A stretch of DNA of 14,964 bases, taken from positions 1 through 14,964 of the forward strand of contig CAZJQD010000062.1 of the NCBI GenBank assembly GCA_964548165.1, written 5' to 3'. The notes beneath the pieces are model-generated. The model saw only the letters and a list, made by a program, of their open reading frames with translations. It was not told the origin of the DNA and ran no database searches. Positions 2,575 through 14,920 of this stretch are shown one piece after another (position 1 is the stretch's first letter; each line of letters opens with the position of its first letter). Made by a program: the position numbers and the translations under genes. Source of the DNA: an uncultured bacterium (GTDB lineage Bacteria > UBA8481).

Positions 2575-3695
2575 GCATTCACCTCGGATCTTCCCGCCAT
2601 CGCGGGCCGGCTGTCGCCGGGCGCGCGTACCTCCAGGTGCTCGGGCCGGCGCTCCGGAGGACGATACCGTACGGCGAAGCCCCGGGCACGGGGAATGGCG
2701 AGGAGCGCCTCCAGATCGCTCTCGATCCGGGCGCCCGCCTTCTCGGTCACCTCGTCCTCCAGCGGGAGGTCGAAATCGTCGGCCCCCCAGTCCAGCGCGT
2801 CGAAGGCGGCCTCGTTGAGCGTCAGCACGGAGGTCCGGACGTGGCGGACATTATCGAGGACGATGCGGCTCAGGGCGATGTGCCGGCAGTATTCCTCCGA
2901 GGAGACCTCCGAACCTCCCAGGGCCGTTGCGTAGGGCTTGTAGGTCCACGCCAGGAAACTGAAGAGCGCCCCGTCATTCTCGTCCTGGAAGCGGCGCGTC
3001 CGCTCCAGGTGCTCCAGCCGCTCGTCGATCGTCTCGTCGAACCCGATCACCATGGTCGCCGTGGTCCGAAGCCCCGCCGCGACGATGGCCTTCTGCGCCG
3101 CGAAGAACTCCGCGACCGTGTACTTGTACTTGGCGTGGCGACGCCGGAAGTCCTCGGTCAGGATCTCGGCGCCGCCGCCCGTGATCCAGTGGACGCCCGC
3201 GTCCCCGAGCCGGCGCGCCGCCTCCATGCATGTCACGCCGGCGCGCTCGGCCAGGTAGAGAAACTCGGCGATCGTCAGCGCGTAGAACTCCACGCGCCCC
3301 CCGTAGCGGCGCCGCACCCGCGCGAAGAGGTCGCAGTAGAAGTCGAGCCCGACGCCGGGGTCGAATCCGCCGTTGAAGCCGACGAGGTCGCCGCCGCGCG
3401 CGACGAGGTCGTCGATCTTCTGGAAGATCTGCTCCTCGGTCAGGCGGTAGGCGCCCGCCGCCCCCGGCAGGACGTAGAAGGCGCAGTAGTCGCACTGGGC
3501 CACGCACGTGTTCGTGTAGTTGATGATGCGCATGATGGTGTAGGTGGCCGCGCGGGGATCGTGCCAGCGGGCGCGGACGATGCCCGCCAGTGCCTTCAGT
3601 TCGCCGGGATCGGCGGACTGCCAGAGCGCGCGCGCCTCGACGATCGAGATCCGGCCTCCGTCGGCGAGCCTTCGCCCGAGAACGCCGCCCGTCAT
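2571..3695 (-). CDS. Radical SAM enzyme of the MqnC/MqnE/CofH family (futalosine-pathway menaquinone biosynthesis-like)
   Basis: The 374-aa ORF carries a CxxxCxxC cluster inside the family-specific box IINYTNTCVAQCDYCAF (NYTN-C-x3-C-x2-CAF). It also has a glycine-rich GG motif (GFNGGFDP) and a size of about 370 aa typical of MqnC/MqnE. Its stop TGA (2571–2573) overlaps the glgB ATG (2572–2574) as ATGA. Confidence 0.8.
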   Translation of the reverse strand: MTGGVLGRRLADGGRISIVEARALWQSADPGELKALAGIVRARWHDPRAATYTIMRIINYTNTCVAQCDYCAFYVLPGAAGAYRLTEEQIFQKIDDLVARGGDLVGFNGGFDPGVGLDFYCDLFARVRRRYGGRVEFYALTIAEFLYLAERAGVTCMEAARRLGDAGVHWITGGGAEILTEDFRRRHAKYKYTVAEFFAAQKAIVAAGLRTTATMVIGFDETIDERLEHLERTRRFQDENDGALFSFLAWTYKPYATALGGSEVSSEEYCRHIALSRIVLDNVRHVRTSVLTLNEAAFDALDWGADDFDLPLEDEVTEKAGARIESDLEALLAIPRARGFAVRYRPPERRPEHLEVRAPGDSRPAMAGRSEVNA

Positions 3696-3769
3696 CGCTC
3701 GCTCATGATTGCCACGCGCTTAGTAGCGTCGCTGGTTCTTCGACGCCGGCGCTCATCGGCATAGCCCCA

Positions 3770-5446
3770 TCATGCCGGCCCGCGCTCCCAGACCTCGGCC
3801 ACCAGCGACTCCAGTTCCAGGGAGAGCGGGCGCGCCGCCTGCCGTAACGGCGAGCCGTCGCTCGGAGATGAAACCGAAGAAGCGTCTCGCGGCTCCGCGG
3901 CCGAAGCCACGTCGGCCGGGGGCGCCAGATCGCCAGCCTCGGTCACCGCGCGCTCCACCGGCGGCAGGACGACGTGCGTGGTCTCGACGATGGGAACCAG
4001 CCGGGACTGCACGAAGGCGTCGTAGGCCTTGAGGCGCCGCGCCAGCACTTCCATGATCCGAAGCGCGATCGCCGGAGCGCTCCGGATGATCGTCTCGAAA
4101 TCGGCGGCGCCGATGCGGATCGCGCGCAGGGGCTCGATGGCCCGGACGGTGGCGAACCGCGGCGCGCCGTCGAGGAGCGACATCTCGCCGAAGAAGGCGC
4201 CCTTCCCGAGCAACGCGAGGACGCGCTCTTCTTCGCCCCCCGCGCGCGTGACCCGCGCCACGCCGTCGAGAATGAAGTAGAGATCGCGATCCGCGGAACC
4301 CTCCCGGACGACGATCTCACCCGCACCGTACGAACAGCCGTGACGCGCAAAGAGAGGCTCGAAGTTCACGGCCCACTCCACGGTCTCGGTCGTGGACCCG
4401 ATGCCGGCGGACTCCACGAGGCCCGCGCCTGCCGGGCGCTCGCCTGCCGGGCGCTCGCCTACCAGGCGCTCGACCGGGCGCGGAGGCGACGCGGGCAGGG
4501 GCTGGCTGAAGACGCGATCGGGTGGCTCGGCGACCGGAGAAAACGCCGACTTCGTCGCCGGCGAAGACGGAGCCGGGGGCGGCTGCCCGGACGGCAGGGG
4601 CACGGGCACCCCCGGAGGCGCGGCGGCCGCCACGCCCGGATCCACGGCTTTCAGGAGCGGCTTGAGATCCTCGATCTTCACGCGCAGCTCCGCGCTCCCC
4701 GATCGCGAGACCGCCTGCAGGGACATGCTCAGGAACTTCAACGCCCGCGCATGCCGCGCCGCCCGATCCGTTCCCGGGGCCTCGAGAAGCATGTAGTTCG
4801 TCGCGGCGATCATGTAGGGAATCGCCTCCTGGCCGAAGTTAACGCCATAGTCAGGGCCCACATACAGGCCGTCCGGGAGGCTCTCCTTCACGTACCCCTG
4901 CTCGAGAAATTCGTCCGCTGTCACCAGGGCGTCCGTCACGGCGCGGCCCGCATCCCACGGCAAGGTCATGCCCGACGCCGCCGCAAGCTCGATCATCCAC
5001 GCGCGGCGATAGGCGATCCAGCCGATCCGAAAGGCGCGGATCGGCCCGCTCCGGGCGCGATACCAGGTGTCGGCCAGGAGATAGGAGACAAGCCCGAGGC
5101 GCAGGTCGCGCGTCGCTTCCAGGGCCGCCGACGTGATGCCCCACTTCTTGAGGAGCGCTCGTCCCTCGTGGGCCGCCGACTCGCGGACGGCCGTGTCGAT
5201 CTTGATCCGCGCGTCGTCGAACTCGGACTCGACGGCGGTCAGCGTGCAGGCCGGACAGATCGCCAGCGAGTAGACGAGGGGATCCGGCATACCGCCCGGC
5301 AAGGCGTCGTAGACGTTGCGGAGCCGCCAATCGCGCGCCTTGGCCGCCACCTTGCGCGTCAGCAGTTTCTCGTAGGAGAAGGCGCAACTGCACGCGGGGC
5401 ACATCTTCGCCACCTGGTAGGTCCAGGTCGTCAAGCGGTCGGCCAT
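3770..5446 (-). CDS. Fusion protein: N-terminal DUF2225-like zinc-ribbon/helical domain + Pro/Ala-rich linker + C-terminal cyclic-nucleotide-binding (CAP-effector) domain
   Basis: The 558-aa ORF has a strong SD (AAGGGGGAG) 7 nt upstream of the ATG. The N-terminus has two CxxC pairs in the DUF2225 pattern (KMCPACSCAF ... DPLVYSLAICPACTLTAVESEF), followed by helical TPR-like sequence. Residues ~355–475 form a canonical cNMP-binding fold with phosphate-binding cassette FGEMSLLDGAPRFATVRA (G-E-x-S-L-L-x-x-x-P-R-x-A-T-V-x-A). A Pro/Ala-rich linker (res. 270–345) contains ERPAGERPAG repeats. Confidence 0.85.
   Translation of the reverse strand: MADRLTTWTYQVAKMCPACSCAFSYEKLLTRKVAAKARDWRLRNVYDALPGGMPDPLVYSLAICPACTLTAVESEFDDARIKIDTAVRESAAHEGRALLKKWGITSAALEATRDLRLGLVSYLLADTWYRARSGPIRAFRIGWIAYRRAWMIELAAASGMTLPWDAGRAVTDALVTADEFLEQGYVKESLPDGLYVGPDYGVNFGQEAIPYMIAATNYMLLEAPGTDRAARHARALKFLSMSLQAVSRSGSAELRVKIEDLKPLLKAVDPGVAAAAPPGVPVPLPSGQPPPAPSSPATKSAFSPVAEPPDRVFSQPLPASPPRPVERLVGERPAGERPAGAGLVESAGIGSTTETVEWAVNFEPLFARHGCSYGAGEIVVREGSADRDLYFILDGVARVTRAGGEEERVLALLGKGAFFGEMSLLDGAPRFATVRAIEPLRAIRIGAADFETIIRSAPAIALRIMEVLARRLKAYDAFVQSRLVPIVETTHVVLPPVERAVTEAGDLAPPADVASAAEPRDASSVSSPSDGSPLRQAARPLSLELESLVAEVWERGPA
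4426..4470. repeat. 15-bp tandem repeat x3 (cgcctgccgggcgct / cgcctgccgggcgct / cgcctaccaggcgct), coding
   Basis: The repeat is directly visible in the sequence. On the minus strand it encodes (V)GERPAGERPAG within the inter-domain linker of the DUF2225–cNMP protein. Confidence 0.8.
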
Positions 5447-5467
5447 GTATCTACTCCCCCTTGATCA

Positions 5468-6766
5468 TCAACGGTGCGCCGCGGTCGTGGCCGACGACGG
5501 CGCGCCGGGCGTCGCCAGCGCGCCGGGCGCCGCCAGCGCCCGCCACCGACGCTCAGCCTCACGCGCGGCCACCTCGGGCCTCGTCCCCGCGAAGACGCGG
5601 TCGAGGCACCCGGGTTCCCCGGTCACGTCATCGCGCATCATCACGGTCCAGACGTGCTGCATCTGGACATCCGTCGGCATCAGCACCGCCGAGTCCCAGA
5701 AGACCTGCGGCCGCGCGGTGAGCGGATGGCTCGAGAGCGCGTCGAACTCGTAGGCCCGGCGATTCGCGGGCATGTATCCCGCCACGACGTTCATCAGGCA
5801 CCCGCTGAAGGGCGACGTGAGGTGGCGCATCACCTCGACGGCCAGGTCCACCCGCGGCGAGTGCGCGGCAACCGCGAACGCCTTCACCCCGAGAAACGGC
5901 GCCGGGTGCCGGCGCGAGGGTGATAACAGCGGGAGCGGTGCGATGCCGATCGGGATGCGGTCCCATGCCAGGCTCCCGTAGGCCCAGGGGCCGCTGATGA
6001 GAAAGGGCGCGCGGCCGCTGTTGAAGATCGCCATCTGCCGCTCCCAATCCACCGTGTCCGGGATCACGTGCTGAACGCGCGCCAGGTCCCGGGCGAAAGC
6101 GAGCGACTTGAGCATCGCGGGGCTTCGCACGGCGAAGTTGCCCCTCGCGTCGAAGACCTGGCCGCCGAACCCGTGCAACCACATCGCATGGAAGTAGAAG
6201 TTGGCGCGTTCGTACACGATCCCCCAGCGATCCCGGCGCGGGTCCGCGAAGCGCCGGGCCGTGGCCAGCATCTCGTTGGTCGTCCGCGGCGCGCGGTCGA
6301 CGAGGTTGCGGTTGTAATAGAGCATCAGCGACTCGAACGAGAGCGGGAGTCCGTAGAGCTTGCTCTCATGGCGAAGCGGGGTCACGCACTGCGGGATGAA
6401 ATCGGAAAGCTCGGCCGAGTCGATCCGCGAATCGAGCGGCAGGAGCCACCCGCGCCGCGCCCAGGGCACGATCTTGTCGTGGGCCCAGACCACGAGGTCC
6501 GGCGATCCCGCCCCCGGCTCCGCCAGCGCCGACTCGACCCGGGCTATGTACTCGGCCCCGTCGATGGCAACGAGCTTCACCTGGTTCTCGTGAGCCTCAT
6601 TGAAGGCCGCGACCGCCGTCTCCAGGGCCTCCGCCTCGCGTCCCCGGAAGGAGTGCCAGAGCGTCACCGCTTCCGCGGACGCCGGCGCGGTGAACGACAG
6701 GATGAGAGCGAGCCCGAAAAGGCCGGCGACGAAGCCACGGGCGACCGTGCGGATCATGCGAAGCAT
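5468..6766 (-). CDS. Periplasmic ABC-transporter substrate-binding protein, family 1 (MalE/maltodextrin-binding-like), orphan
   Basis: The 432-aa ORF has an N-terminal signal peptide (MLRMIRTVARGFVAGLFGLALILSFTAPASA-EA). The mature N-terminal region aligns by eye to the MalE N-lobe: LWHSF...ALETAVAAFNE...VKLVAID...GSPDLVVWAHDKI...GWLLPLD versus MalE LVIWING...FEKDTGIKVTV...GPDIIFWAHDRFG...GLLAEITP. No permease or ATPase genes are adjacent. There is an Ala/Pro-rich C-terminal tail. Confidence 0.8.
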   Translation of the reverse strand: MLRMIRTVARGFVAGLFGLALILSFTAPASAEAVTLWHSFRGREAEALETAVAAFNEAHENQVKLVAIDGAEYIARVESALAEPGAGSPDLVVWAHDKIVPWARRGWLLPLDSRIDSAELSDFIPQCVTPLRHESKLYGLPLSFESLMLYYNRNLVDRAPRTTNEMLATARRFADPRRDRWGIVYERANFYFHAMWLHGFGGQVFDARGNFAVRSPAMLKSLAFARDLARVQHVIPDTVDWERQMAIFNSGRAPFLISGPWAYGSLAWDRIPIGIAPLPLLSPSRRHPAPFLGVKAFAVAAHSPRVDLAVEVMRHLTSPFSGCLMNVVAGYMPANRRAYEFDALSSHPLTARPQVFWDSAVLMPTDVQMQHVWTVMMRDDVTGEPGCLDRVFAGTRPEVAAREAERRWRALAAPGALATPGAPSSATTAAHR

Positions 6767-6810: not shown

Positions 6811-7548
6811 CTACCCCTCGATGGCGAAGTTGATGGTCACGACGGCCATGGCTTCCTTGTCGCGGCTGGAGGTATCCAGCATGCCGCCGTCGGAGACCTC
6901 CGTGGAGTTGACGGGCCGGACCTGGAAGACGCCGACGCGCACGCCGCGCGCGGTGCCCAGCGTCGATCCCGTCTTCGTCGCGATCGCGGTCGCGCGCTCC
7001 CGGGCGTTCGCGGCGGCCTCGCCGGCCAGCTCGATCTTCAAGGCCTCGAGCCCCGTGAAGAAGTACTGCGGCTCGTCGGACTCGAAGTACAGGCCCTCCT
7101 CCAGGAGGTCCGTAGCCGAGCTGGCCAGCTTGACGAGGAAGTCGACGTCGCGGGACGTGATCTTGAAGTTGAGCGTCAGCTGGTAGCCGATCACTTCCTC
7201 GGTCGTGCCGTACCCATTGGGGTTGGGTTTACGGATGGCCTCCGTGTTCAAGGGCGGGATCTCGATGTCCGAATCCTTCACACCCTGGCGGCGGAAATAC
7301 ACGAGCACCTTCTCGCGCGCCGTCTTCAACGCCGCGTAGGCGCTCTGCACGTCGGCTCCACGGACCCGGATGCGCGAGTTCCAGACGGCCATGTCGGAGC
7401 TGATGGGACGGATGGCCGAACCCGTGACCGTCAGCGTCTGCCCCGACGCCTTCAATTCAGCGAGGGGCCCAGCGAGGATGAACGCGGATAGGGCCAGCCC
7501 GGCGGCGAGCACCAACCCGAAGACAACAAGACCTGGTTGACGATTCAT
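6811..7548 (-). CDS. SIMPL-domain (DUF541; BP26/OMP28 / YggE-like) periplasmic protein
   Basis: The 245-aa ORF has a signal peptide or TM anchor. The C-terminal motif GVFQVRPVNSTEVSDGGMLDTSSRDKEAMAVV matches the conserved SIMPL core. SD GGAGAAGG lies upstream of the ATG. Confidence 0.8.
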   Translation of the reverse strand: MNRQPGLVVFGLVLAAGLALSAFILAGPLAELKASGQTLTVTGSAIRPISSDMAVWNSRIRVRGADVQSAYAALKTAREKVLVYFRRQGVKDSDIEIPPLNTEAIRKPNPNGYGTTEEVIGYQLTLNFKITSRDVDFLVKLASSATDLLEEGLYFESDEPQYFFTGLEALKIELAGEAAANARERATAIATKTGSTLGTARGVRVGVFQVRPVNSTEVSDGGMLDTSSRDKEAMAVVTINFAIEG

Positions 7549-7659
7549 AATTCACATTCCTTCTCCGGCGGCGTCCTGCGCCTCACCGGTCACTCACACC
7601 CGTTGGACCAGCCGGACTCCCCGAAAGTTCCAGACCCCGGCTCTTCTGACCCTTCCTCC

Positions 7660-9570
7660 CTACCGCGCGTGGGCGTCCTCCAGGTAGGTGTACCCCGAGA
7701 GCCCCGACTCGTAGAAGCGAAGGAAAAGAGTCGCTTCCTCGACCGTCATCTTCTTGGCCCGGACGGCCTGCTCCACGTCCTTGCGGATCGCGTTGAGCAT
7801 CTCGTCGGGATTGTACTCCACGAAGGAGAGAACCTCGCGAACCGTGTCCCCCTTCACCACGTGGTCGATGGAGACCTCGCCGTCCTCGTCGATGGAGACG
7901 TGCACGGCGTTGGTGTCCCCGAGGAGGTTATGCAGGTCCCCGAGGATCTCCTGGTAGGCGCCGACGAGGAAGGCCGCGAGGTAGTAGTCCTTGCCGTCGT
8001 AGGGATGGAGTTCCAAGGTCTTCTTCACGTCGTGGAGCTCGATGAAGCGATCGATCTTGCCGTCAGAGTCGCAGGTGATGTCCGCGAGGATGGCCCGGCG
8101 CGTCGGTTCTTCCGTGAGCCGGTGGATGGGCATGATCGGGAAGAGCTGGCGGATGGCCCAGCTGTCCGGCATCGACTGGAAGATGGAGAAGTTGCAGAAG
8201 TAGGTGTCCGAGAGCTGGCTCTGGAGGTTCTCCATCTCCTCCGGCACGTGCTCCATGTCCTGCGTCATCTTCAGGATCCGCCCGCAGATCGACCAGTAGA
8301 GGCTCTCGACCTGGCACCGCTCCTTGAGGTTGAGGTGGCCGAGGTTGAAGAGGTTGAGCGCGTCCTCGCGGAGCTGTTGGGCGTCGTGGTAGACCTCGTT
8401 GACGTTCTTCGCCGTGATGGTCTTGGCGACCTCGAAGAGCTCCTTCAAGGGCATCGAGGCGTCCGGCAGGGGCGCCTCGGGAACGCGGAAGTCGTCGAAG
8501 CGGGCGACGCCGAGGACGTTGAAGATCAACGCGCTGTGGTAGGCCACGACGGCGCGGCCGGACTCGGAGATGATCGTCGGGTGGGGAATGCCCGCCTGGT
8601 CGCAAACGGACTTCACCCGGAAGACGATGTCGTTGGCATACTCCTGGAGCGTGTAGTTGACTGAGGACTCGAAGTTCGACTGCGAGCCGTCGTAGTCGAC
8701 GCCGAGCCCGCCGCCGACGTCGATGTAGCAGAGCCCGGCGCCGCTCTGCTTCAGCTCGGCGTAGATCCGGCAGGCCTCCGTCAGCGTCTCCTTGATCTTG
8801 CGGATGTTGGTGACCTGGCTCCCCATGTGGTAGTGCAAGAGCTTCATGCAGTCGGCCATGCCACGGTCCTGGAGGTACTGAAGCGCGTTGGAGACCTCCA
8901 TCACGGTCAGGCCGAACTTGGATCGGTATCCGGCCGAGAGCTCCCAGCGCCCCGACCCCTTGCTGGCCAGTTTAACCCGCACGCCCAGCTGGGGGCGCAC
9001 CTGGTGGATCTCGGCGTATTTCACGATCAGCTCGAGCTCGGTGAACTTCTCCACGACGGGGATGATGTTCCGGCCGATCTTCTGCGCCAGGATCACCGTC
9101 TCGATGAACTCGTCGTCCTTGAAGCCGTTGCAGATGATGGGGACCTTCATGCCGGCCGTGCACGCCAGGACGGCGAGGAGCTCGGGCTTGGAACCCGCCT
9201 CGATCCCGAAGCCATACTCCTTGCCGAAGTCGAGGATCTCCTCGACGACGTGTCTCTGCTGGTTGACCTTGATCGGGTAGACACAGCAGTACTCGCCGCG
9301 GAACTCGTACTCCTGGATCGCGTTGCGAAATGCCTGGGCCACGTCGCCGAGGCGGTGGCGGAGGATGTCGGTGAAGCGGATCAGGAGGGGCGCGGAGAGC
9401 CCGCGCAGCTCGAGCTGCTTGACGAGCTCAGGAAGGTTGATGGCGTGATCGGGACGCTTGTCCGGATGCACGGTGACATTGCCCTCGGGACTGACGGCGA
9501 AATAGCCCTGTCCCCAGTTCTTGATGTTGTAGCAGTCGATGGAATCCTGGACCGTCCACTTGATATCCAT
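7660..9570 (-). CDS. speA: Biosynthetic arginine decarboxylase (PLP-dependent, fold III)
   Basis: The 636-aa ORF begins with MDIKWTVQDSIDCYNIKNWGQGYFAVSPEGNVTVHP, which is the SpeA N-terminal signature. A YPIKVNQQRHVVE motif carries the PLP-binding Lys, and the Orn/Arg/DAP-decarboxylase barrel and C-terminal domain are present. Length matches SpeA (~630–660 aa). Confidence 0.95.
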   Translation of the reverse strand: MDIKWTVQDSIDCYNIKNWGQGYFAVSPEGNVTVHPDKRPDHAINLPELVKQLELRGLSAPLLIRFTDILRHRLGDVAQAFRNAIQEYEFRGEYCCVYPIKVNQQRHVVEEILDFGKEYGFGIEAGSKPELLAVLACTAGMKVPIICNGFKDDEFIETVILAQKIGRNIIPVVEKFTELELIVKYAEIHQVRPQLGVRVKLASKGSGRWELSAGYRSKFGLTVMEVSNALQYLQDRGMADCMKLLHYHMGSQVTNIRKIKETLTEACRIYAELKQSGAGLCYIDVGGGLGVDYDGSQSNFESSVNYTLQEYANDIVFRVKSVCDQAGIPHPTIISESGRAVVAYHSALIFNVLGVARFDDFRVPEAPLPDASMPLKELFEVAKTITAKNVNEVYHDAQQLREDALNLFNLGHLNLKERCQVESLYWSICGRILKMTQDMEHVPEEMENLQSQLSDTYFCNFSIFQSMPDSWAIRQLFPIMPIHRLTEEPTRRAILADITCDSDGKIDRFIELHDVKKTLELHPYDGKDYYLAAFLVGAYQEILGDLHNLLGDTNAVHVSIDEDGEVSIDHVVKGDTVREVLSFVEYNPDEMLNAIRKDVEQAVRAKKMTVEEATLFLRFYESGLSGYTYLEDAHAR

Positions 9571-9738
9571 GGTTGGCGAATCGTCTCCCGTCGGCGGTTC
9601 AACATGCTGCGGGCGGGAGCGACTCCGACCGGAGGCCGGGACCGTGACCCCGACCGATCGCGAACATTAGCGCCCGTCGTCGCTCGCGCAATACAAATAT
9701 GGCGTAGGGACGGCGATAAACTTGTTACACTTCTCACC
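9571..9738. promoter_or_regulatory. Divergent intergenic region (speA <- -> hypothetical/dsbD) containing an AT-rich island
   Basis: This 168-bp non-coding gap lies between two divergently oriented start codons. Positions ~9690–9738 (caatacaaatatggcgtagggacggcgataaacttgttacacttctcacc) are markedly AT-rich relative to the ~70 % GC background, as expected for promoter or regulatory DNA. No confident -35/-10 hexamers could be assigned. Confidence 0.3.
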
Positions 9739-10737
9739 ATGCTCCTCGGTCCGCACAGTCTCCTGGTCCTCGCCGTCCTTCTCGTGGGCGCCGGCTTGTA
9801 CCATCGCGAGACCGTGCCGACACCGGGCCTTACCCAGGCGGCCGCGGGGGTCGAGTCTCCCGTGTCGGTCGCGCCGCAGCCTGTCACACCGCCCGTGTCA
9901 GTCGCTCCGCAGGCGGGTGTCACCACCGCGCCCCTTCCGGCCACGCTCCAGGCCGCGATCGACCAGGCCCTCACGAGCGGTAATCCCGCGCCTCTTGGAA
10001 ACAGTCGCCTCCCGCGCCTCGGCGACCTCACCCCGCCTCAACTCGAAGGCGTCGCCCGACGCTTCGCCGCCTGGCCGGCTCCACGACGAGCCGCCGCCTT
10101 CGCCTTTCTCCTGGTCGGGACTCCCTACAGGAACGGACCCCTGGGCGAAGAGGCTCCTCCCGATACCGATCCCCTGTTCGCCACCCGCCCCGTCGACTGC
10201 GCCACCGTCAATCTCGTTGCCATGTCGCTCGCTCACGTCCCCGAGTCGGGCACCCCGCGCGAGGCCATGCGCCATGCGAACTATCGCCATGGGCGCATCG
10301 GCTACGCGACTCGCCTGCACTTCACGACTGACCGCCTCGACGTCAGCCCCTACAACAAGGACATCACGCGCCTCATCGGCGGCCGGGCGACGCGATCCCG
10401 CGTCGTCACGCTGAACCGCCGCCCGAACGGCACACCGTGGATTCCCATCGAGTGGCGACGAACGCGCAGGGTCTGGTACATCCCCATCGCCGAGGCGCGA
10501 AACTTCGCCGCTCGCTGGCGTGAAGGGCGCCTGCCGGAAGCGGTCGGCGTCGCCTTCGTTTCCGAAAGGATGATGGCCCAGGGGCTCGACGTGATCCACG
10601 AGTCGCTTCTCTGGCAGGGGCAGACCCTCCTGCACGGCTCCAGTAGCGCCGGCAGCGTCTCCACCGTGGACTGGAACCATTACCTGGACAGCCAGGGATC
10701 GCGCATCGACGGCGTGGTGGTCTTTGCGTATCGCTAG
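9739..10737 (+). CDS. Hypothetical membrane-anchored periplasmic protein: N-terminal TM helix, Pro-rich repeat linker, ~230-aa globular domain with single Cys (possible papain-like/NlpC-P60-superfamily-like hydrolase)
   Basis: The 332-aa ORF is the sense-strand portion of track ORF 8827..10737, which upstream of 9739 is antisense to speA. It starts MLLGPHSLLVLAVLLVGAGLY, a hydrophobic anchor. Residues 40–60 carry the PVSVAPQ repeat. The globular region has the motif GTPY-x(20)-VDCATVNLV followed by His residues (H179, H184, H194, H288), which is reminiscent of G-x-PY...DCSG-hydrophobic in NlpC/P60-like Cys hydrolases. Its 3' end overlaps dsbD by 14 bp. Confidence 0.65.
   Translation: MLLGPHSLLVLAVLLVGAGLYHRETVPTPGLTQAAAGVESPVSVAPQPVTPPVSVAPQAGVTTAPLPATLQAAIDQALTSGNPAPLGNSRLPRLGDLTPPQLEGVARRFAAWPAPRRAAAFAFLLVGTPYRNGPLGEEAPPDTDPLFATRPVDCATVNLVAMSLAHVPESGTPREAMRHANYRHGRIGYATRLHFTTDRLDVSPYNKDITRLIGGRATRSRVVTLNRRPNGTPWIPIEWRRTRRVWYIPIAEARNFAARWREGRLPEAVGVAFVSERMMAQGLDVIHESLLWQGQTLLHGSSSAGSVSTVDWNHYLDSQGSRIDGVVVFAYR
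9859..9924 (+). repeat. Imperfect 33-bp tandem duplication encoding PVSVAPQ(P/A)VT Pro-rich repeats
   Basis: cccgtgtcggtcgcgccgcag-cctgtcacaccg / cccgtgtcagtcgctccgcag-gcgggtgtcacc. It lies inside the linker of the hypothetical protein. Confidence 0.7.
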
Positions 10738-12664
10738 AGCCCTGATCGCCGCCGCGCTCCTTCTCGTCGGCATCGTCTCCACCGCGACAGCCTTCGGGCC
10801 TGCTCCGTTCGCCGTCACCGCGACGATCGCGAATGACCTCGCCCTCGCCAGCTCCGGCACCCTGGTCGTCACGCTTGACGTTCCACCCCATCTCCACGTC
10901 AACGCCGCCCGACCCACCTTCGACTACTTGATCCCGACCACGATCGCGGTCGAAGGCGCGCCTGGCCCAGGCGCGCCCGGGGTCCGGATCGGAACGCCGC
11001 GCTTCCCCTCCCCGAAGATGCTCGCCGTCGGGGGCATGAACGAGCCCATTGCCGTCTACGACGGCTCCGTCCGCATCCGCGTCCCAATCACGGTCGATCC
11101 CGCCGCCTCGCCCGGACCGCGCACGCTTCGCGGGACAGTCCGCTACCAGGCCTGCGACGACCAATCCTGCTATCCTCCCGTCGAGGTCGCCTTCACCACG
11201 ACCTTCACCGTAACCGACGCCCGGTCGCCGATCGCGGAGCCGGAGCCCGCGTTTCTCCTCCCGCCGCCCGCCGACGAACTTCCGGTCGACGATGCTCTCC
11301 CCCCCACCGCCGATACCGCGGGTTCCGCAGCCGGCGCGAGCGCCGTCCCGACCGCGGTCGTGCCCCTCCCCGGATCCACGCCCGGCCTCCCCCTCATGCT
11401 CCTCTTCGCCTTCCTCGGCGGACTCCTCCTCAACCTCATGCCCTGCGTCCTGCCCGTGCTCTCGCTCAAGATCATGAGCCTCATCAAGAACGCGCACGAA
11501 TCGCGCGGCCGAGCCGCCGCCCTGGGGCTCGCCTATACCGGAGGCGTCCTCGTCTCCTTCTGGTCCCTCGCCGCGCTCATCCTTGTCCTGCGATCCGCCG
11601 GCGCCGCGGTCGGCTGGGGCTTCCAGTTCCAGAATCCCCACTTCGTCACCGTCCTCTCCGGGATCGTCACCGCCTTCGCCCTGAGCCTCTTCGGCGCCTT
11701 CGAGATCAACCTGCCGGGCGCGGCGGGTACCCGCATGGCCGCGGCCTCCTCGCGCGAGGGCGTCCCGGGCGCCTTCCTCGGCGGCGTCTTCGCCACGCTC
11801 CTCGCGACGCCCTGCACGGCCCCCTTCCTCGGCGCCGCCATGGGGTTCGCCTTCGCCCAGCCTGCCGGCATTCTCATCGCCGCCTTCACCGCCGCCGCCC
11901 TCGGGCTCGCTCTCCCCTACCTCCTCCTTGTCATCACGCCCGCCGCTCGACGTCTCCTGCCGCGACCCGGCGCCTGGATGGAACGGCTCAAGCAGGGCTT
12001 CGGCTTCCTCATGCTCGCCACCCTCCTCTGGCTCTGGTTCGTCCTCGGCCAGCAGGCCGGCGTCCTCGCCCTCATCGCCGTCGCCGGCTGGAACCTCGTC
12101 GCCGCCTTCGCGATCTGGTCCTCCTTCGCCGCCGCCGGGCTCGATGCCGGCGCCGCGAAGCGATGGACGGCGCGCCTCGTCATGGTCGGAGTCATCGTCG
12201 GCAGTTGGTTCCTGCTCGTCTCTCCCGCGCTGGTCCCCGCGCCCGCCTCACCCGACGGCCGCACTCCCCTCAGCACATATGCCAGCATGGCCCCGGAAGA
12301 TATCCCGGCAGGCACCTGGATCCCCTACGACGCCGACCTCCTCGCGAAGCTTCGCGCCGCCGGCCGCACCGTCTTCGTCGATGCCACCGCCGACTGGTGC
12401 CTCACCTGCAAGGTCAACGAGCGCACCGTGCTCAAGACGGAGCGCATTCAAGAGGCCTTCCTCCGAGAGAACGTCGTCCTGATGATCGCCGACTGGACGC
12501 TCCAGGACCATGCGGTCACGGATCTGCTCGCCGGCTTCGGCCGCGCCGGCGTCCCGTTCTACGTCCTCTACCCGGGTACCGCGAATCCCATCACGCTCCC
12601 GGAATTGCTGACAGCCTCCATCGTCGAAGACGCTCTCGCCCGGGGTCGTCCCCCGACGCCCTGA
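10724..12664 (+). CDS. dsbD: Thiol:disulfide interchange protein DsbD (three-domain: DsbD-alpha, CcdA-like TM beta, thioredoxin-like gamma)
   Basis: The 646-aa ORF begins at a TTG start at 10724, followed by a signal peptide (RIARALIAAALLLVGIVSTATA-FG). The alpha-domain Cys pair is QACDDQSC (C144/C149). The TM core has the conserved Cys residues LMPCVLPVL and ATPCTAPFL. The C-terminal thioredoxin fold carries WCLTCK (CxxC). The exact start is uncertain, as there is no in-frame ATG nearby. Confidence 0.9.
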   Translation: MRIARALIAAALLLVGIVSTATAFGPAPFAVTATIANDLALASSGTLVVTLDVPPHLHVNAARPTFDYLIPTTIAVEGAPGPGAPGVRIGTPRFPSPKMLAVGGMNEPIAVYDGSVRIRVPITVDPAASPGPRTLRGTVRYQACDDQSCYPPVEVAFTTTFTVTDARSPIAEPEPAFLLPPPADELPVDDALPPTADTAGSAAGASAVPTAVVPLPGSTPGLPLMLLFAFLGGLLLNLMPCVLPVLSLKIMSLIKNAHESRGRAAALGLAYTGGVLVSFWSLAALILVLRSAGAAVGWGFQFQNPHFVTVLSGIVTAFALSLFGAFEINLPGAAGTRMAAASSREGVPGAFLGGVFATLLATPCTAPFLGAAMGFAFAQPAGILIAAFTAAALGLALPYLLLVITPAARRLLPRPGAWMERLKQGFGFLMLATLLWLWFVLGQQAGVLALIAVAGWNLVAAFAIWSSFAAAGLDAGAAKRWTARLVMVGVIVGSWFLLVSPALVPAPASPDGRTPLSTYASMAPEDIPAGTWIPYDADLLAKLRAAGRTVFVDATADWCLTCKVNERTVLKTERIQEAFLRENVVLMIADWTLQDHAVTDLLAGFGRAGVPFYVLYPGTANPITLPELLTASIVEDALARGRPPTP

Positions 12665-12677
12665 ACCACCACGCGGG

Positions 12678-12708
12678 TTGACAAGGCACAAAGAGCTGTT
12701 GTTTGATA
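12678..12708 (+). promoter_or_regulatory. Candidate sigma70-like promoter for the flotillin gene
   Basis: A perfect TTGACA sits at 12678–12683 in the 117-bp dsbD–flotillin gap. Downstream candidates TTTGAT or TTGATA lie at 12702–12708, giving an 18–19-nt spacer. The -10 is weak, so this is tentative. Confidence 0.3.
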
Positions 12709-12781
12709 GGCGCACACGTCCAGCTCACGCCGCCCGCCACGCTCTCCCGAACGATAGACGACATCCTTGCGGGGGTAGTTC

Positions 12782-14920
12782 ATGTCCACAATCATCGGCT
12801 TGATAGGCACGGTCATCGGCGGCCTCATACTCCTGGTCATCGTCTACGGTGTCCTGCGTCTCGTCGTCGGCTGGACCTATCGTATCCCCCAGCAAGGACA
12901 GGCCCTGGTCCGGACCGGCCTCGGCGGCATCAAGGTCGCCTACGAGAGCGGCATCTTCGTGATGCCCATCGTCCACAAGCTCGAGATCATGGACATCGGC
13001 ATCAAGCGCGTCGAGATTCACCGCCACGGGGCCACGGGCCTCATCTGCAAGGATAACCTCCGGGCCGACATCAAGGTCACCTTCTACGTGCGCGTCGATT
13101 CCAGCAACCCCATGAACACCGTGCACGTCGCCCAGACGCTCGGCTGCGTCCGCGCCTCCGACGCCCAGGTGCTCGCCGAGCTCTTCGAGCCCAAGTTCTC
13201 GGACGCCCTCAAGACGGCGGGACGCGAGTTCAACTTCGAGGACCTCTTGAACAAGCGCGTCGAACTGCGCACCGCCATCAAGCGCCACGTCGGCACCGAC
13301 CTCAACGGCTACGCGCTCGACGACGCCGCCATCGACCTCCTGGAACAGACAAAGGTCGAGATGCTCGATCCCAACAACATCCTCGACTCCGAAGGCATCA
13401 AGCTCATCACCGAGAGAACCGCGACGCAGTCCATCCTCACCAACGAGCGCAACCGCGATCGCGAGCGCGAGATCAACAAGAAGGACGTCGAGACCCGCGA
13501 GATCATCCTCGAGCAGAACCGCCAGCTCGCCGAGGCCGAGGAGAAGCAGAAGCGCGAGATCGCCTCGATCAAGGCGCGCGAGGACGCCGAGACCGTGCGG
13601 TTCCAGCAGGAACAGCGTCTCAAGGCCGAGAAGGCCCGCATCGCCTCGGACGAGGAGCTCCAGGTCGCCGAGGAGAATCGGAAGCGCCAGGTCATCGTGG
13701 CCGAGCGCAACCGCGAGTCCACGGACGCGGTCGAGAAGGTCCGGGTCGAGAAGAACCGCCAGATCGAGGACATCGAGCGCGACAAGATCGTCTCCCTCGC
13801 CGGGATCGAGAAGCAGAAGGTCGTGGAGACCGAGCAGAAGAACATCCAGGAGGTCATCCGCGCCCGCGTGATGGTCCAGAAGGACGTCGTGATCGAGGAG
13901 CAGAAGATCAAGGACACCGAGGCGTTCGCCACGGCCGATCGCGAGAAGAAGGTGCTGCTGACGATGGCCGAGGCCGAGGCCGAGCAGGCGGTCGTGAAGA
14001 ACATCAAGGCCGCCGAGGCCGCCAAGAAGACGGCCGAGCTCAAGGTCGACGCCGACGGCATCGTGCTCGTCCGGAACGCCGAGGCCGCCAAGAAGGCCGC
14101 GGAACTGAGAGCCGACCAGGACGTGCTCGTCGCGGTGAAGGGCGCGGAAGCCCAGAAGAAATCGGCCGAGCTCATCGCCGAGAAGGTCGTCATCGAGGCG
14201 GAAGGCGAGCAGAACGCGGCCGCCCGCATCTCCACCGGCAAGAAGGTCCTGGCCGAGGGCGTCTCGGCCGAGCAGGCGGCAACCGGGCTGGCCGAGGCGG
14301 CCGTCATTGAGGCAAAGGCGGCGGCGTTCGGCAAGCAGGGCCAGACCGAGGCCGAGGTCGCTCGCCTCAAGGCCCAGGCCGAGGCCGACGGGATCGTCAA
14401 GAAGGCCGAGGCCATGAAGCTCTTTCACGAGGCCGGGAAGGAGCACGAGGAGTTCAAGATCACGACGCAGACGGAGAAGGACATCGCCCTCGCCGAGATC
14501 GGCATCCGCAAGGATATCGCGGAAAGCCAGGCCAAGGTCGTCGGCGCCGCGCTCGCGAACGCTCGCGTCGATATCGTCGGCGGAGAGACCCAGTTCTTCG
14601 ACCGCATCGTCAACGCGGTTACGGGCGGCAAGGTCGTGGAGCGGACGATCGAGAACTCCCGGACGCTCTCAGGCCTTCGCGACACCCTCTTGGACGGCGA
14701 CCCCGAGGCCTGCCGCCACCGGATCCGGGAATGGGTCGGGCGGTTCGGCATCTCCTCCGAGGACCTGAAGAACCTCTCCATCGCCGCCGCGCTCACGCGC
14801 ATGCTCTCGCTCGCCGGCGATGCCGAATCCAAGAGGTCGGTCCGGGGACTCCTCAAGCAGGTGAAGGACGCGGGGATCGGCGAGGAACTCATCACGGGCA
14901 TCATCGGTAAGACCGAGTAA
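12782..14920 (+). CDS. Flotillin-family SPFH/Band-7 protein (YqiK/FloT-like) with extended coiled-coil
   Basis: The 712-aa ORF has an N-terminal TM helix (MSTIIGLIGTVIGGLILLVIVYGVL). The SPFH core (QALVRTGLGG...FVMPIVHK...DIKVTFYVRV) is followed by a very long E/A/K/R-rich coiled-coil with flotillin-type EA repeats. SD GGGGG sits 9 nt upstream of the ATG. Confidence 0.9.
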   Translation: MSTIIGLIGTVIGGLILLVIVYGVLRLVVGWTYRIPQQGQALVRTGLGGIKVAYESGIFVMPIVHKLEIMDIGIKRVEIHRHGATGLICKDNLRADIKVTFYVRVDSSNPMNTVHVAQTLGCVRASDAQVLAELFEPKFSDALKTAGREFNFEDLLNKRVELRTAIKRHVGTDLNGYALDDAAIDLLEQTKVEMLDPNNILDSEGIKLITERTATQSILTNERNRDREREINKKDVETREIILEQNRQLAEAEEKQKREIASIKAREDAETVRFQQEQRLKAEKARIASDEELQVAEENRKRQVIVAERNRESTDAVEKVRVEKNRQIEDIERDKIVSLAGIEKQKVVETEQKNIQEVIRARVMVQKDVVIEEQKIKDTEAFATADREKKVLLTMAEAEAEQAVVKNIKAAEAAKKTAELKVDADGIVLVRNAEAAKKAAELRADQDVLVAVKGAEAQKKSAELIAEKVVIEAEGEQNAAARISTGKKVLAEGVSAEQAATGLAEAAVIEAKAAAFGKQGQTEAEVARLKAQAEADGIVKKAEAMKLFHEAGKEHEEFKITTQTEKDIALAEIGIRKDIAESQAKVVGAALANARVDIVGGETQFFDRIVNAVTGGKVVERTIENSRTLSGLRDTLLDGDPEACRHRIREWVGRFGISSEDLKNLSIAAALTRMLSLAGDAESKRSVRGLLKQVKDAGIGEELITGIIGKTE
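14009..14209 (+). repeat. Three tandem ~66-bp (22-aa) coding repeats in the flotillin coiled-coil
   Basis: AEAAKKTAELKVDADGIVLVRN / AEAAKKAAELRADQDVLVAVKG / AEAQKKSAELIAEKVVIEAEG. The nucleotide units gccgccgaggccgccaagaagacggccgagctc... recur with ~66-bp period. Confidence 0.75.

Follow-up and report, generated by a model that had tools for sequence, protein, structure and literature searches.

An AmiA-like gene overlapping dsbD

We analysed a 14,964-nt stretch of DNA from an uncultured bacterium (GTDB lineage UBA8481; contig CAZJQD010000062.1 of GenBank assembly GCA_964548165.1), hereafter the window, in which the end of one plus-strand open reading frame (ORF) overlaps the start of the next (Table 1). 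The first of the two genes (ORF1) encodes a protein of the AmiA-like amidase family, and the second (ORF2) a DsbD-family thiol:disulfide reductase. A preliminary description, made from the sequence alone, had proposed that this pair joins a periplasmic hydrolase with a lone catalytic cysteine to a reductase that would keep the cysteine reduced. Both genes belong to known families, and what is new is a DsbD-client-like operon in which the partner is a papain-fold hydrolase; our literature searches (DsbD with NlpC; DUF1460) returned no paper connecting DsbD with NlpC/P60 or DUF1460 proteins.

ORF1 matches the Pfam family PF07313 (AmiA-like, formerly DUF1460) with an E-value of 9.8e-18 and 64.8 bits against a cut-off of 27. 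The match spans residues 125–316, corresponding to profile positions 6–196 of 202, and the same domain is recorded in 91 of 92 ORF1 homologues. A profile built from 31 homologues (alignment A1) matches the PDB entries 2im9, 2p1g and 4h4j. The AlphaFold2 (AF2) model of ORF1, with a predicted local distance difference test score (pLDDT) of 85.5, contains a membrane helix (residues 5–25), a disordered Pro-rich stretch, a helical subdomain (residues 68–124) and an alpha/beta core. When this model was submitted to Foldseek, the top six matches were 2im9, 4h4j, 4q5k, 4q68 and two chains of 2p1g, with a probability of 1.0; target-normalised template modelling (TM) scores against the DUF1460 structures were 0.60–0.67, at sequence identities of 17–20% to the solved members. 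The family match, the profile matches and the predicted fold thus bear out the guess in the preliminary description of a DUF1460-type papain-fold hydrolase, although the label 'uncharacterised' that it attached does not apply, as the family already has a biochemically characterised member.

ORF1 has exactly one cysteine, C154, which lies in a VDCATVNLV context following GTPY. This residue is invariant in all 76 full-length relatives and nearly invariant in A1, where H287 and H299 are invariant; when aligned with 2p1g, the three fall on its DC, H and HASS motifs. A Cys-His-His triad has been described for DUF1460 (PMC10318531), and on the grounds of conservation and homology the predicted triad of ORF1 is C154-H287-H299, in keeping with the catalytic role that had been suggested for the lone cysteine and the histidines downstream of it.

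The characterised member of the family, Bacteroides uniformis AmiA (4h4j, 4q5k and 4q68), is an N-acetylmuramoyl-L-alanine amidase specific for GlcNAc-1,6-anhydro-MurNAc-peptides, an activity known for this member only (PMC4600125); the same paper supports a role of the AmiA family in peptidoglycan turnover. The window amidase likewise belongs to PF07313 and has a predicted NlpC/P60 fold with a Cys-His-His triad, at 17–18% identity to the B. uniformis enzyme. Two uncharacterised DUF1460 structures, 2im9 from Legionella and 2p1g from B. fragilis, have the same family, fold and triad. The characterised Bacteroides AmiA has been placed in the periplasm in a proposed Bacteroides pathway; compared with it, the window amidase additionally has a helical subdomain (residues 67–124), a Pro-rich tether and a membrane helix, and would add to the DUF1460/AmiA family a variant that is tethered to the membrane and has one more helical subdomain.

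Both the N-terminal hydrophobic segment and the Pro-rich stalk of the preliminary description are present, as judged by hydropathy (Kyte–Doolittle segment at residues 1–21, mean 2.09), AF2 and composition. At the position of the helix, homologues carry signal-peptide-like N-termini bearing Arg or Lys, and in the linker pLDDT falls below 50 at residues 24–44. The helical subdomain contains the motifs LPRL and RRVAA.AFL, conserved in A1, is specific to this amidase clade, and is found in part in Legionella 2im9, whose alignment starts at profile position 67. The heptapeptide PVSVAPQ occurs twice in the linker (9859–9915, residues 41–59, SPVSVAPQPVTPPVSVAPQ), a duplication that the homologues do not have.

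ORF2 contains three Pfam domains, all above cut-off: DsbD_N (residues 85–157, E-value 7e-10), DsbD_TM (residues 225–437, 3e-29) and Thioredoxin_7 (residues 535–617, 1.5e-16). It has exactly six cysteines, all of them invariant in 26 homologues, and several hydrophobic, putatively transmembrane segments between residues 218 and 508, in overlapping ranges that do not fix their exact count. By these domains and canonical cysteines ORF2 is a complete three-domain DsbD-family thiol:disulfide reductase, and the preliminary call of this gene as dsbD stands. With E. coli DsbD it has in common the domain order, two cysteines per domain and the motifs YQ(A/G)C...CYPP, PC in two membrane helices and WCxxC, and over the gamma domain, CxxC included, it can be aligned with structures of E. 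coli DsbD-gamma. The likeness is weak, however, in the alpha domain: a profile of the 26 sequences matches E. coli DsbD-alpha (3pfu) with an E-value of only 0.0075, a phmmer search of the PDB with the alpha domain alone gave no match, and the two alpha cysteines are separated by four residues, as opposed to five in E. coli DsbD. ORF2 moreover scores below the cut-off of the NCBIfam DsbD model NF001419 (E-value 1.3e-54, 185.8 bits against a cut-off of 330), and is therefore a distant DsbD-family member and not an equivalog. Its homologues are named variously in the sources, as DsbD, ScsB or 'thioredoxin family protein'; with its single ~140-residue alpha domain and its YQAC...CYPP motif, ORF2 probably belongs to the DsbD class and not to ScsB.

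Both reading frames bear a coding signature, with GC contents at third codon positions (GC3) of 0.82 for ORF1 and 0.87 for ORF2 in a window of 62–73% GC. In the dsbD frame a stop at 10592 precedes the gene, and TTG 10724 is the first start after that stop. The sole alternative in-frame start, TTG 10928, would cost the protein its signal peptide (MRIARALIAAALLLVGIVSTATA) as well as the first conserved residues of the alpha domain, and M1 aligns in at least 90% of the DsbD homologues (n = 26). Independent support for the TTG comes from a low-GC lineage (loci L011, L120 and L121; 42% GC), as an ATG there holds the homologous position, 14 nt before the amidase stop. The 14-nt overlap reported in the preliminary description is borne out by these checks. 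At the other end of ORF1, the start at ATG 9739 is the same as in the database proteins P0001 and P0002 (P0002 being 74% identical), and the in-frame stretch upstream of it has a GC3 of 0.61, a non-coding pattern, compared with 0.82–0.93 in genes. Longer versions of ORF1 from GTG 8827 or ATG 9604 were ruled out by their non-coding GC3, by rare codons and by overlap with speA on the opposite strand, and the antisense ORFs at 9898–10917 and 10406–11641 by GC3 and the lack of a Pfam match.

Conservation of the gene pair

Genome and metagenome collections yielded 161 related loci, to which we added contexts found by looking up exact proteins. In the window and in L079, L080/L081, L164, L163, L008 and L011/L120/L121, dsbD comes directly after the amidase gene; with L001, described below, tight pairing recurs in eight separate lineages, which argues that it is not due to chance. 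The 14-nt overlap of the window is found again in L079 and L080/L081, with a TTG start, and in L011/L120/L121, with the ATG start, which has GGAG 9 nt upstream. In L008 and L164 the two genes share 1 or 4 nt. The automatic gene call for L079 (1440–1500) begins DsbD at a later ATG and thereby loses the signal peptide, which is regained with the TTG of the 14-nt overlap; in L163 (6912–6981) the earliest ATG would give a 4-nt overlap, and the gene caller put the DsbD start 66 nt after the amidase stop.

L001, from a metagenome-assembled genome (MAG) labelled Hydrogenedentota, differs in its second gene. Here a 3-nt gap separates the amidase gene from a gene on the plus strand (6862–7560) that encodes a stand-alone DsbD-alpha-like protein of 232 aa, with a signal peptide, a DsbD-alpha-like domain containing YQACDAVRC and a C-terminal membrane helix; no DsbD beta or gamma domains were found within 6 kb. 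Stand-alone alpha-domain proteins are known among DsbD-family systems (PMC3322552), and the arrangement is a hint, from a single case, that what matters in DsbD is its alpha domain.

The proteins of the window and L011 are 43% identical in the amidase and 26% in DsbD, and the GC content of the linked loci ranges from 42% to 70%. Their flanks vary as well: speA lies divergently upstream only in window-type loci and is absent from L011-type loci, which have a CLC channel gene downstream. The persistence of a gene pair and its tight junction while the flanks change is usually read as functional coupling. In a neighbour-joining tree, calculated without support values, linked genes occupy all basal branches of this clade except L010, and the simplest history would be an old linkage with at least two losses, one where a large soil clade arose and one in L010. 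Bacteroides amidase genes do not adjoin dsbD, with no DsbD match in a locus titled B. fragilis (L059), and the dsbD of E. coli is not paired with an amidase gene.

The linked and unlinked amidases also differ in their cysteine content. In an alignment of 76 sequences (window numbering), DsbD-linked amidases have no conserved second cysteine, whereas those of the unlinked soil clade nearly always have Cys218, often plus Cys203, and those of a Marinimicrobia-type clade have a conserved Cys269. The extra cysteines of the unlinked clades could form a structural disulfide, or could include a resolving cysteine that makes a reductase next door unnecessary, in a pattern that amounts to only two or three evolutionary events.

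A different neighbourhood is found in a sister clade at ~30% identity (L012, L014, L017, L133, L136–L138 and L142). There the AmiA-like gene lies between an upstream gene whose ~980-aa product joins GH3 (NagZ-type) to beta-lactamase domains and a downstream gene for NamZ, an exo-beta-N-acetylmuramidase, a compact cluster that fits a role of the family in the breakdown of peptidoglycan fragments.

A possible redox link between amidase and DsbD

Most known clients of the DsbD pathway have a thioredoxin fold. Among the single-cysteine enzymes under its protection the cell-wall L,D-transpeptidases are the best known; these clients of the DsbD-DsbG/DsbC system are not NlpC/P60 amidases and are not known to be encoded with dsbD. 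In that system, as set out in PMC4624244 and PMC3322552 (and Depuydt et al. 2009 as cited there), DsbG and DsbC are fed by DsbD and keep single periplasmic cysteines reduced. The window amidase matches this client type, its sole cysteine being catalytic by homology and its location putatively periplasmic; in contrast, the known client AraF (PMC4624244) is not an NlpC/P60 amidase and is not encoded with dsbD, and for the mediator of the known system no gene was found in the window, nor at the linked loci L079, L163 and L164. A second parallel is provided by operons in which DsbD-family genes are joined with those of their clients, for example scsB with scsC (Cho et al. 2012, PMC3322552). As in these operons, a DsbD-family gene accompanies that of a putatively periplasmic protein in the window, but the partners of the scsB-scsC type are thioredoxin-fold proteins or peroxiredoxins, whereas the window partner is a papain-fold hydrolase encoded upstream of, and overlapping, dsbD. 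In a further locus, L168, a thioredoxin-like gene lies just upstream of the DsbD gene. Cysteine amidases have been activated by thiol reductants in vitro (PMC8586454).

We postulate, tentatively and at somewhat less than even odds, that the two genes form a translationally coupled operon in which DsbD-derived electrons keep the catalytic cysteine of the amidase reduced. A single transcript would start in the 168-bp spacer after speA. The amidase would be exported, with its N-terminal helix and ~40-residue Pro-rich linker tethering the catalytic domain to the periplasmic side of the inner membrane, where, by homology to B. uniformis AmiA, it would cut the MurNAc-L-Ala amide of peptidoglycan turnover fragments via C154, H287 and H299. 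Because the weak TTG start of dsbD lies 14 nt inside the amidase gene, ribosomes ending at the TAG would probably re-initiate there, and both proteins would be made together. DsbD would then relay electrons from cytoplasmic thioredoxin, via its beta, gamma and alpha cysteine pairs, to periplasmic clients. The lone thiol of the amidase, prone to sulfenylation and mixed disulfides in an oxidising compartment, could be kept or returned reduced by these electrons, either directly through the DsbD alpha domain, which is the substrate-contacting domain in E. coli (PMC3322552), or via a DsbG/DsbC-type mediator encoded elsewhere. The analysis shows what the two genes are, which residues are catalytic, the six cysteines of DsbD, and the overlap together with its conservation; the export topology, substrate, translational coupling and redox dependence of the pair we infer from sequence, and redox protection of the lone cysteine is reasonable but unproven. 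If true, cysteine peptidoglycan hydrolases would be added to the set of enzymes in need of reducing power in the periplasm, and the locus would supply a concrete enzyme–reductase pair in poorly known uncultured phyla (Hydrogenedentota/Eisenbacteria-type MAGs); if the link is one of co-transcription only, it would be ordinary, two known families side by side.

A bolder form of this proposal, which we regard as unlikely, would have the DsbD alpha domain itself reduce the amidase, as its dedicated client and as the first DsbD substrate without a thioredoxin fold. The processing of peptidoglycan fragments in these bacteria would in that case be powered or gated, through DsbD, by cytoplasmic thioredoxin, and L001 would represent the minimal module.

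Several points weigh against redox protection by DsbD, in its direct or its mediated form. To our knowledge, all known clients of DsbD-alpha are thioredoxin-fold proteins, and no DsbC, DsbG or other thioredoxin-fold gene was found among the window ORFs (dsbD aside) or in the linked loci L079, L163 and L164. The gene pair is also not general. A large derived soil clade, labelled Candidatus Eisenbacteria where a label is given, is wholly unlinked in ~37 loci with enough downstream sequence, and L010 and all more distant DUF1460 clades are likewise without an adjacent dsbD; the pair and overlap noted in the preliminary description are thus conserved among the closest relatives and in one remote lineage of low GC content, but do not extend to the family at large. 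An adjacent dsbD being absent from so many loci, the amidase can therefore do without one. The neighbours of the unlinked amidase genes are heterogeneous, with no Pfam family in more than 3 of 69 flanking proteins, and a search beside these genes for an alternative redox partner found no consistent one, thioredoxin-fold neighbours occurring in only 3 loci. Conversely, DsbD orthologues at 43–54% identity stand in unrelated contexts, after GH57, AbiEii, TPR or thioredoxin-like genes. The alpha-only arrangement of L001 comes from a single MAG, and when further stand-alone alpha domains were sought beside amidases the sole other one recovered (L170) was in an unrelated context. At 17–18% identity to the B. 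uniformis enzyme, the substrate of the window amidase is a prediction by homology, and its N-terminus is without a positively charged n-region, such that the topology is taken from the homologues. Lastly, DsbD is a general electron hub, and its co-transcription with an envelope gene need not imply a specific client.

Many of these observations would be expected of an operon of convenience, which we consider quite possible. Here dsbD would merely borrow promoter and ribosomes from the envelope housekeeping gene in front of it, and the amidase would have no special need of DsbD, which would serve its usual clients, such as isomerases and cytochrome c maturation. An amidase gene that stands alone in the majority of relatives and throughout the other DUF1460 clades, DsbD orthologues in unrelated contexts, the general nature of the hub (PMC3322552) and the lack of a mediator gene nearby are all in line with this explanation. 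It accounts less readily for a pair and junction that persist to 43% (amidase) and 26% (DsbD) identity and over 42–70% GC as the flanks change, or for L001, where it is only the substrate-contacting alpha domain that adjoins the amidase. Redox protection remains our tentative preference, by a small margin.

The lone cysteine and the conserved coupling would fit a redox switch equally well, as sequence cannot separate protection from regulation. Oxidation of C154 would hold the amidase off and electrons from DsbD would turn it on, tying fragment processing to the energy and redox state of cytoplasmic thioredoxin. We judge such a switch improbable: stoichiometric co-translation is a better fit for constitutive maintenance, and the operon contains no sensor or regulator.

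It is more doubtful still that the family name misleads, in that the amidase-like protein is inert, or is not a muropeptide amidase and acts instead as a DsbD accessory or as a hydrolase or transferase on another envelope substrate. Its 17–20% identity to solved members, its extra conserved helical subdomain (residues 67–124) and a window without peptidoglycan-recycling genes would leave room for this, but conservation of the Cys-His-His triad is strict, the predicted fold is that of DUF1460 at a Foldseek probability of 1.0, and the sister-clade gene is flanked by NagZ-type and NamZ genes. Finally, an annotation artefact, in which the dsbD start is mis-set and there is no overlap, or in which the two ORFs are one frameshifted gene, is hardly credible despite the rarity of TTG as a start and the later ATG picked by the gene caller in L079 and L163, given that no other dsbD start retains the signal peptide, that in L079 the later ATG deletes it and the TTG at the 14-nt overlap restores it, that an ATG occupies the same position in L011/L120/L121, and that the two genes are in different frames with both proteins complete in all relatives.

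Surroundings of the pair

The coordinates of the features discussed here are collected in Table 1.

Table 1. Genes, protein segments and sequence elements of the amidase–dsbD locus (positions in the window)
Feature	Position	Strand	Details
speA (arginine decarboxylase)	7660–9570	−	Pfam; divergent from amidase gene
speA–amidase spacer	9571–9738	.	168 bp
Bipartite motif GAACATTAGCG-N16-CAAT(A/G)A	~9662–9693	.	Conserved; constant 16-nt GC-rich spacer of variable, hairpin-prone sequence
Amidase gene (ORF1)	9739–10737	+	ATG 9739, stop TAG 10735–10737; 332 aa
N-terminal hydrophobic helix, residues 1–25	9739–9813	+	Signal anchor, or uncleaved or cleaved signal peptide; AF2 helix 5–25
Pro/Val/Ala-rich disordered linker, residues 26–66	9814–9936	+	9 Pro, 8 Val and 7 Ala of 41 residues; not conserved in A1
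Helical N-terminal subdomain, residues 67–124	9937–10110	+	AF2 helices 68–80, 84–87, 99–108 and 114–124, high pLDDT
Predicted NlpC/P60 catalytic core, residues 125–332	10111–10734	+	Pfam, structure matches
Putative catalytic codons	Cys154 10198–10200 (TGC); His287 10597–10599 (CAC); His299 10633–10635 (CAC)	+	Codons verified
Shine–Dalgarno-like GGTGG	10716–10720	+	Embedded in codons of the conserved D-G-V-V motif of the amidase
ORF1/ORF2 overlap	10724–10737	+	14 nt, different frames; TTG within the last five amidase codons (F-A-Y-R-stop)
dsbD gene (ORF2)	10724–12664	+	TTG start 10724; 646 aa
DsbD signal peptide	10724–10795	+	
DsbD alpha domain	10796–11218	+	DsbD_N; weak match to E. coli DsbD-alpha
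DsbD alpha Cys codons	C144 11153–11155; C149 11168–11170	+	Motif YQACDDQSCYPP; codons verified
DsbD beta (membrane) domain	11375–12247	+	DsbD_TM
DsbD beta Cys codons	C241 11444–11446 (LMPCVLP); C364 11813–11815 (TPCTAPF)	+	Codons verified
DsbD gamma (thioredoxin-like) domain	12311–12661	+	Thioredoxin_7
DsbD gamma Cys codons	C559 12398–12400; C562 12407–12409 (WCLTC)	+	Codons verified
712-aa ORF	12782–14920	+	117 nt after dsbD; GC3 0.93; N-terminal membrane helix, long Glu/Lys/Ala-rich charged helical region

The spacer between speA and the amidase gene harbours a bipartite motif that is conserved in the window, L079 (~430–462), L080/L081 (L080 ~1510–1541), L164 (~521–553) and L163 (~5911–5942), and more weakly in L008. 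Read on the minus strand it becomes TTGCGC-N16-TAATGT, a sigma-70-like −35/−10 pair facing speA, and is more likely the speA promoter. A sigma-70 consensus scan of 9400–13000 called no promoter, the stricter consensus used not calling the spacer motif; the operon promoter would have to lie in the same spacer, where the consensus scan did not locate a candidate. The scan of 9400–13000 gave no convincing terminator between the amidase and dsbD genes, and an Rfam search of the window returned nothing.

On the minus strand upstream of the pair are genes for glgB, a radical-SAM MqnC/CofH-like protein, a cyclic nucleotide (cNMP)-binding protein, a solute-binding protein, a SIMPL protein and speA. 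Four long antisense ORFs, at 361–2934, 2637–3764 and 3974–5464 on the plus strand and at 12725–14446 on the minus strand, were rejected as high-GC artefacts on account of an inverted pattern of GC by codon position and the lack of a Pfam match; they reach 857 aa, and some exceed the real gene opposite in length.

Two recurrent neighbourhoods were seen among the related loci. In L018–L077 (Candidatus Enterousia and other gut alphaproteobacterial MAGs), a DUF1460 gene regularly follows an ORF of ~100 aa and precedes TsaD (13 of the sampled loci). A gene of the AbiEii toxin family lies directly upstream in two unrelated loci, of an unlinked amidase gene in L162 (5378–6888) and of an unlinked dsbD in L166 (2107–3033).

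The 712-aa ORF downstream of dsbD has no sequence match in Pfam, NCBIfam or the PDB. It was ruled out as a member of the module, being beside the pair in none of the related loci; by eye, the protein resembles those of the flotillin/SPFH type.

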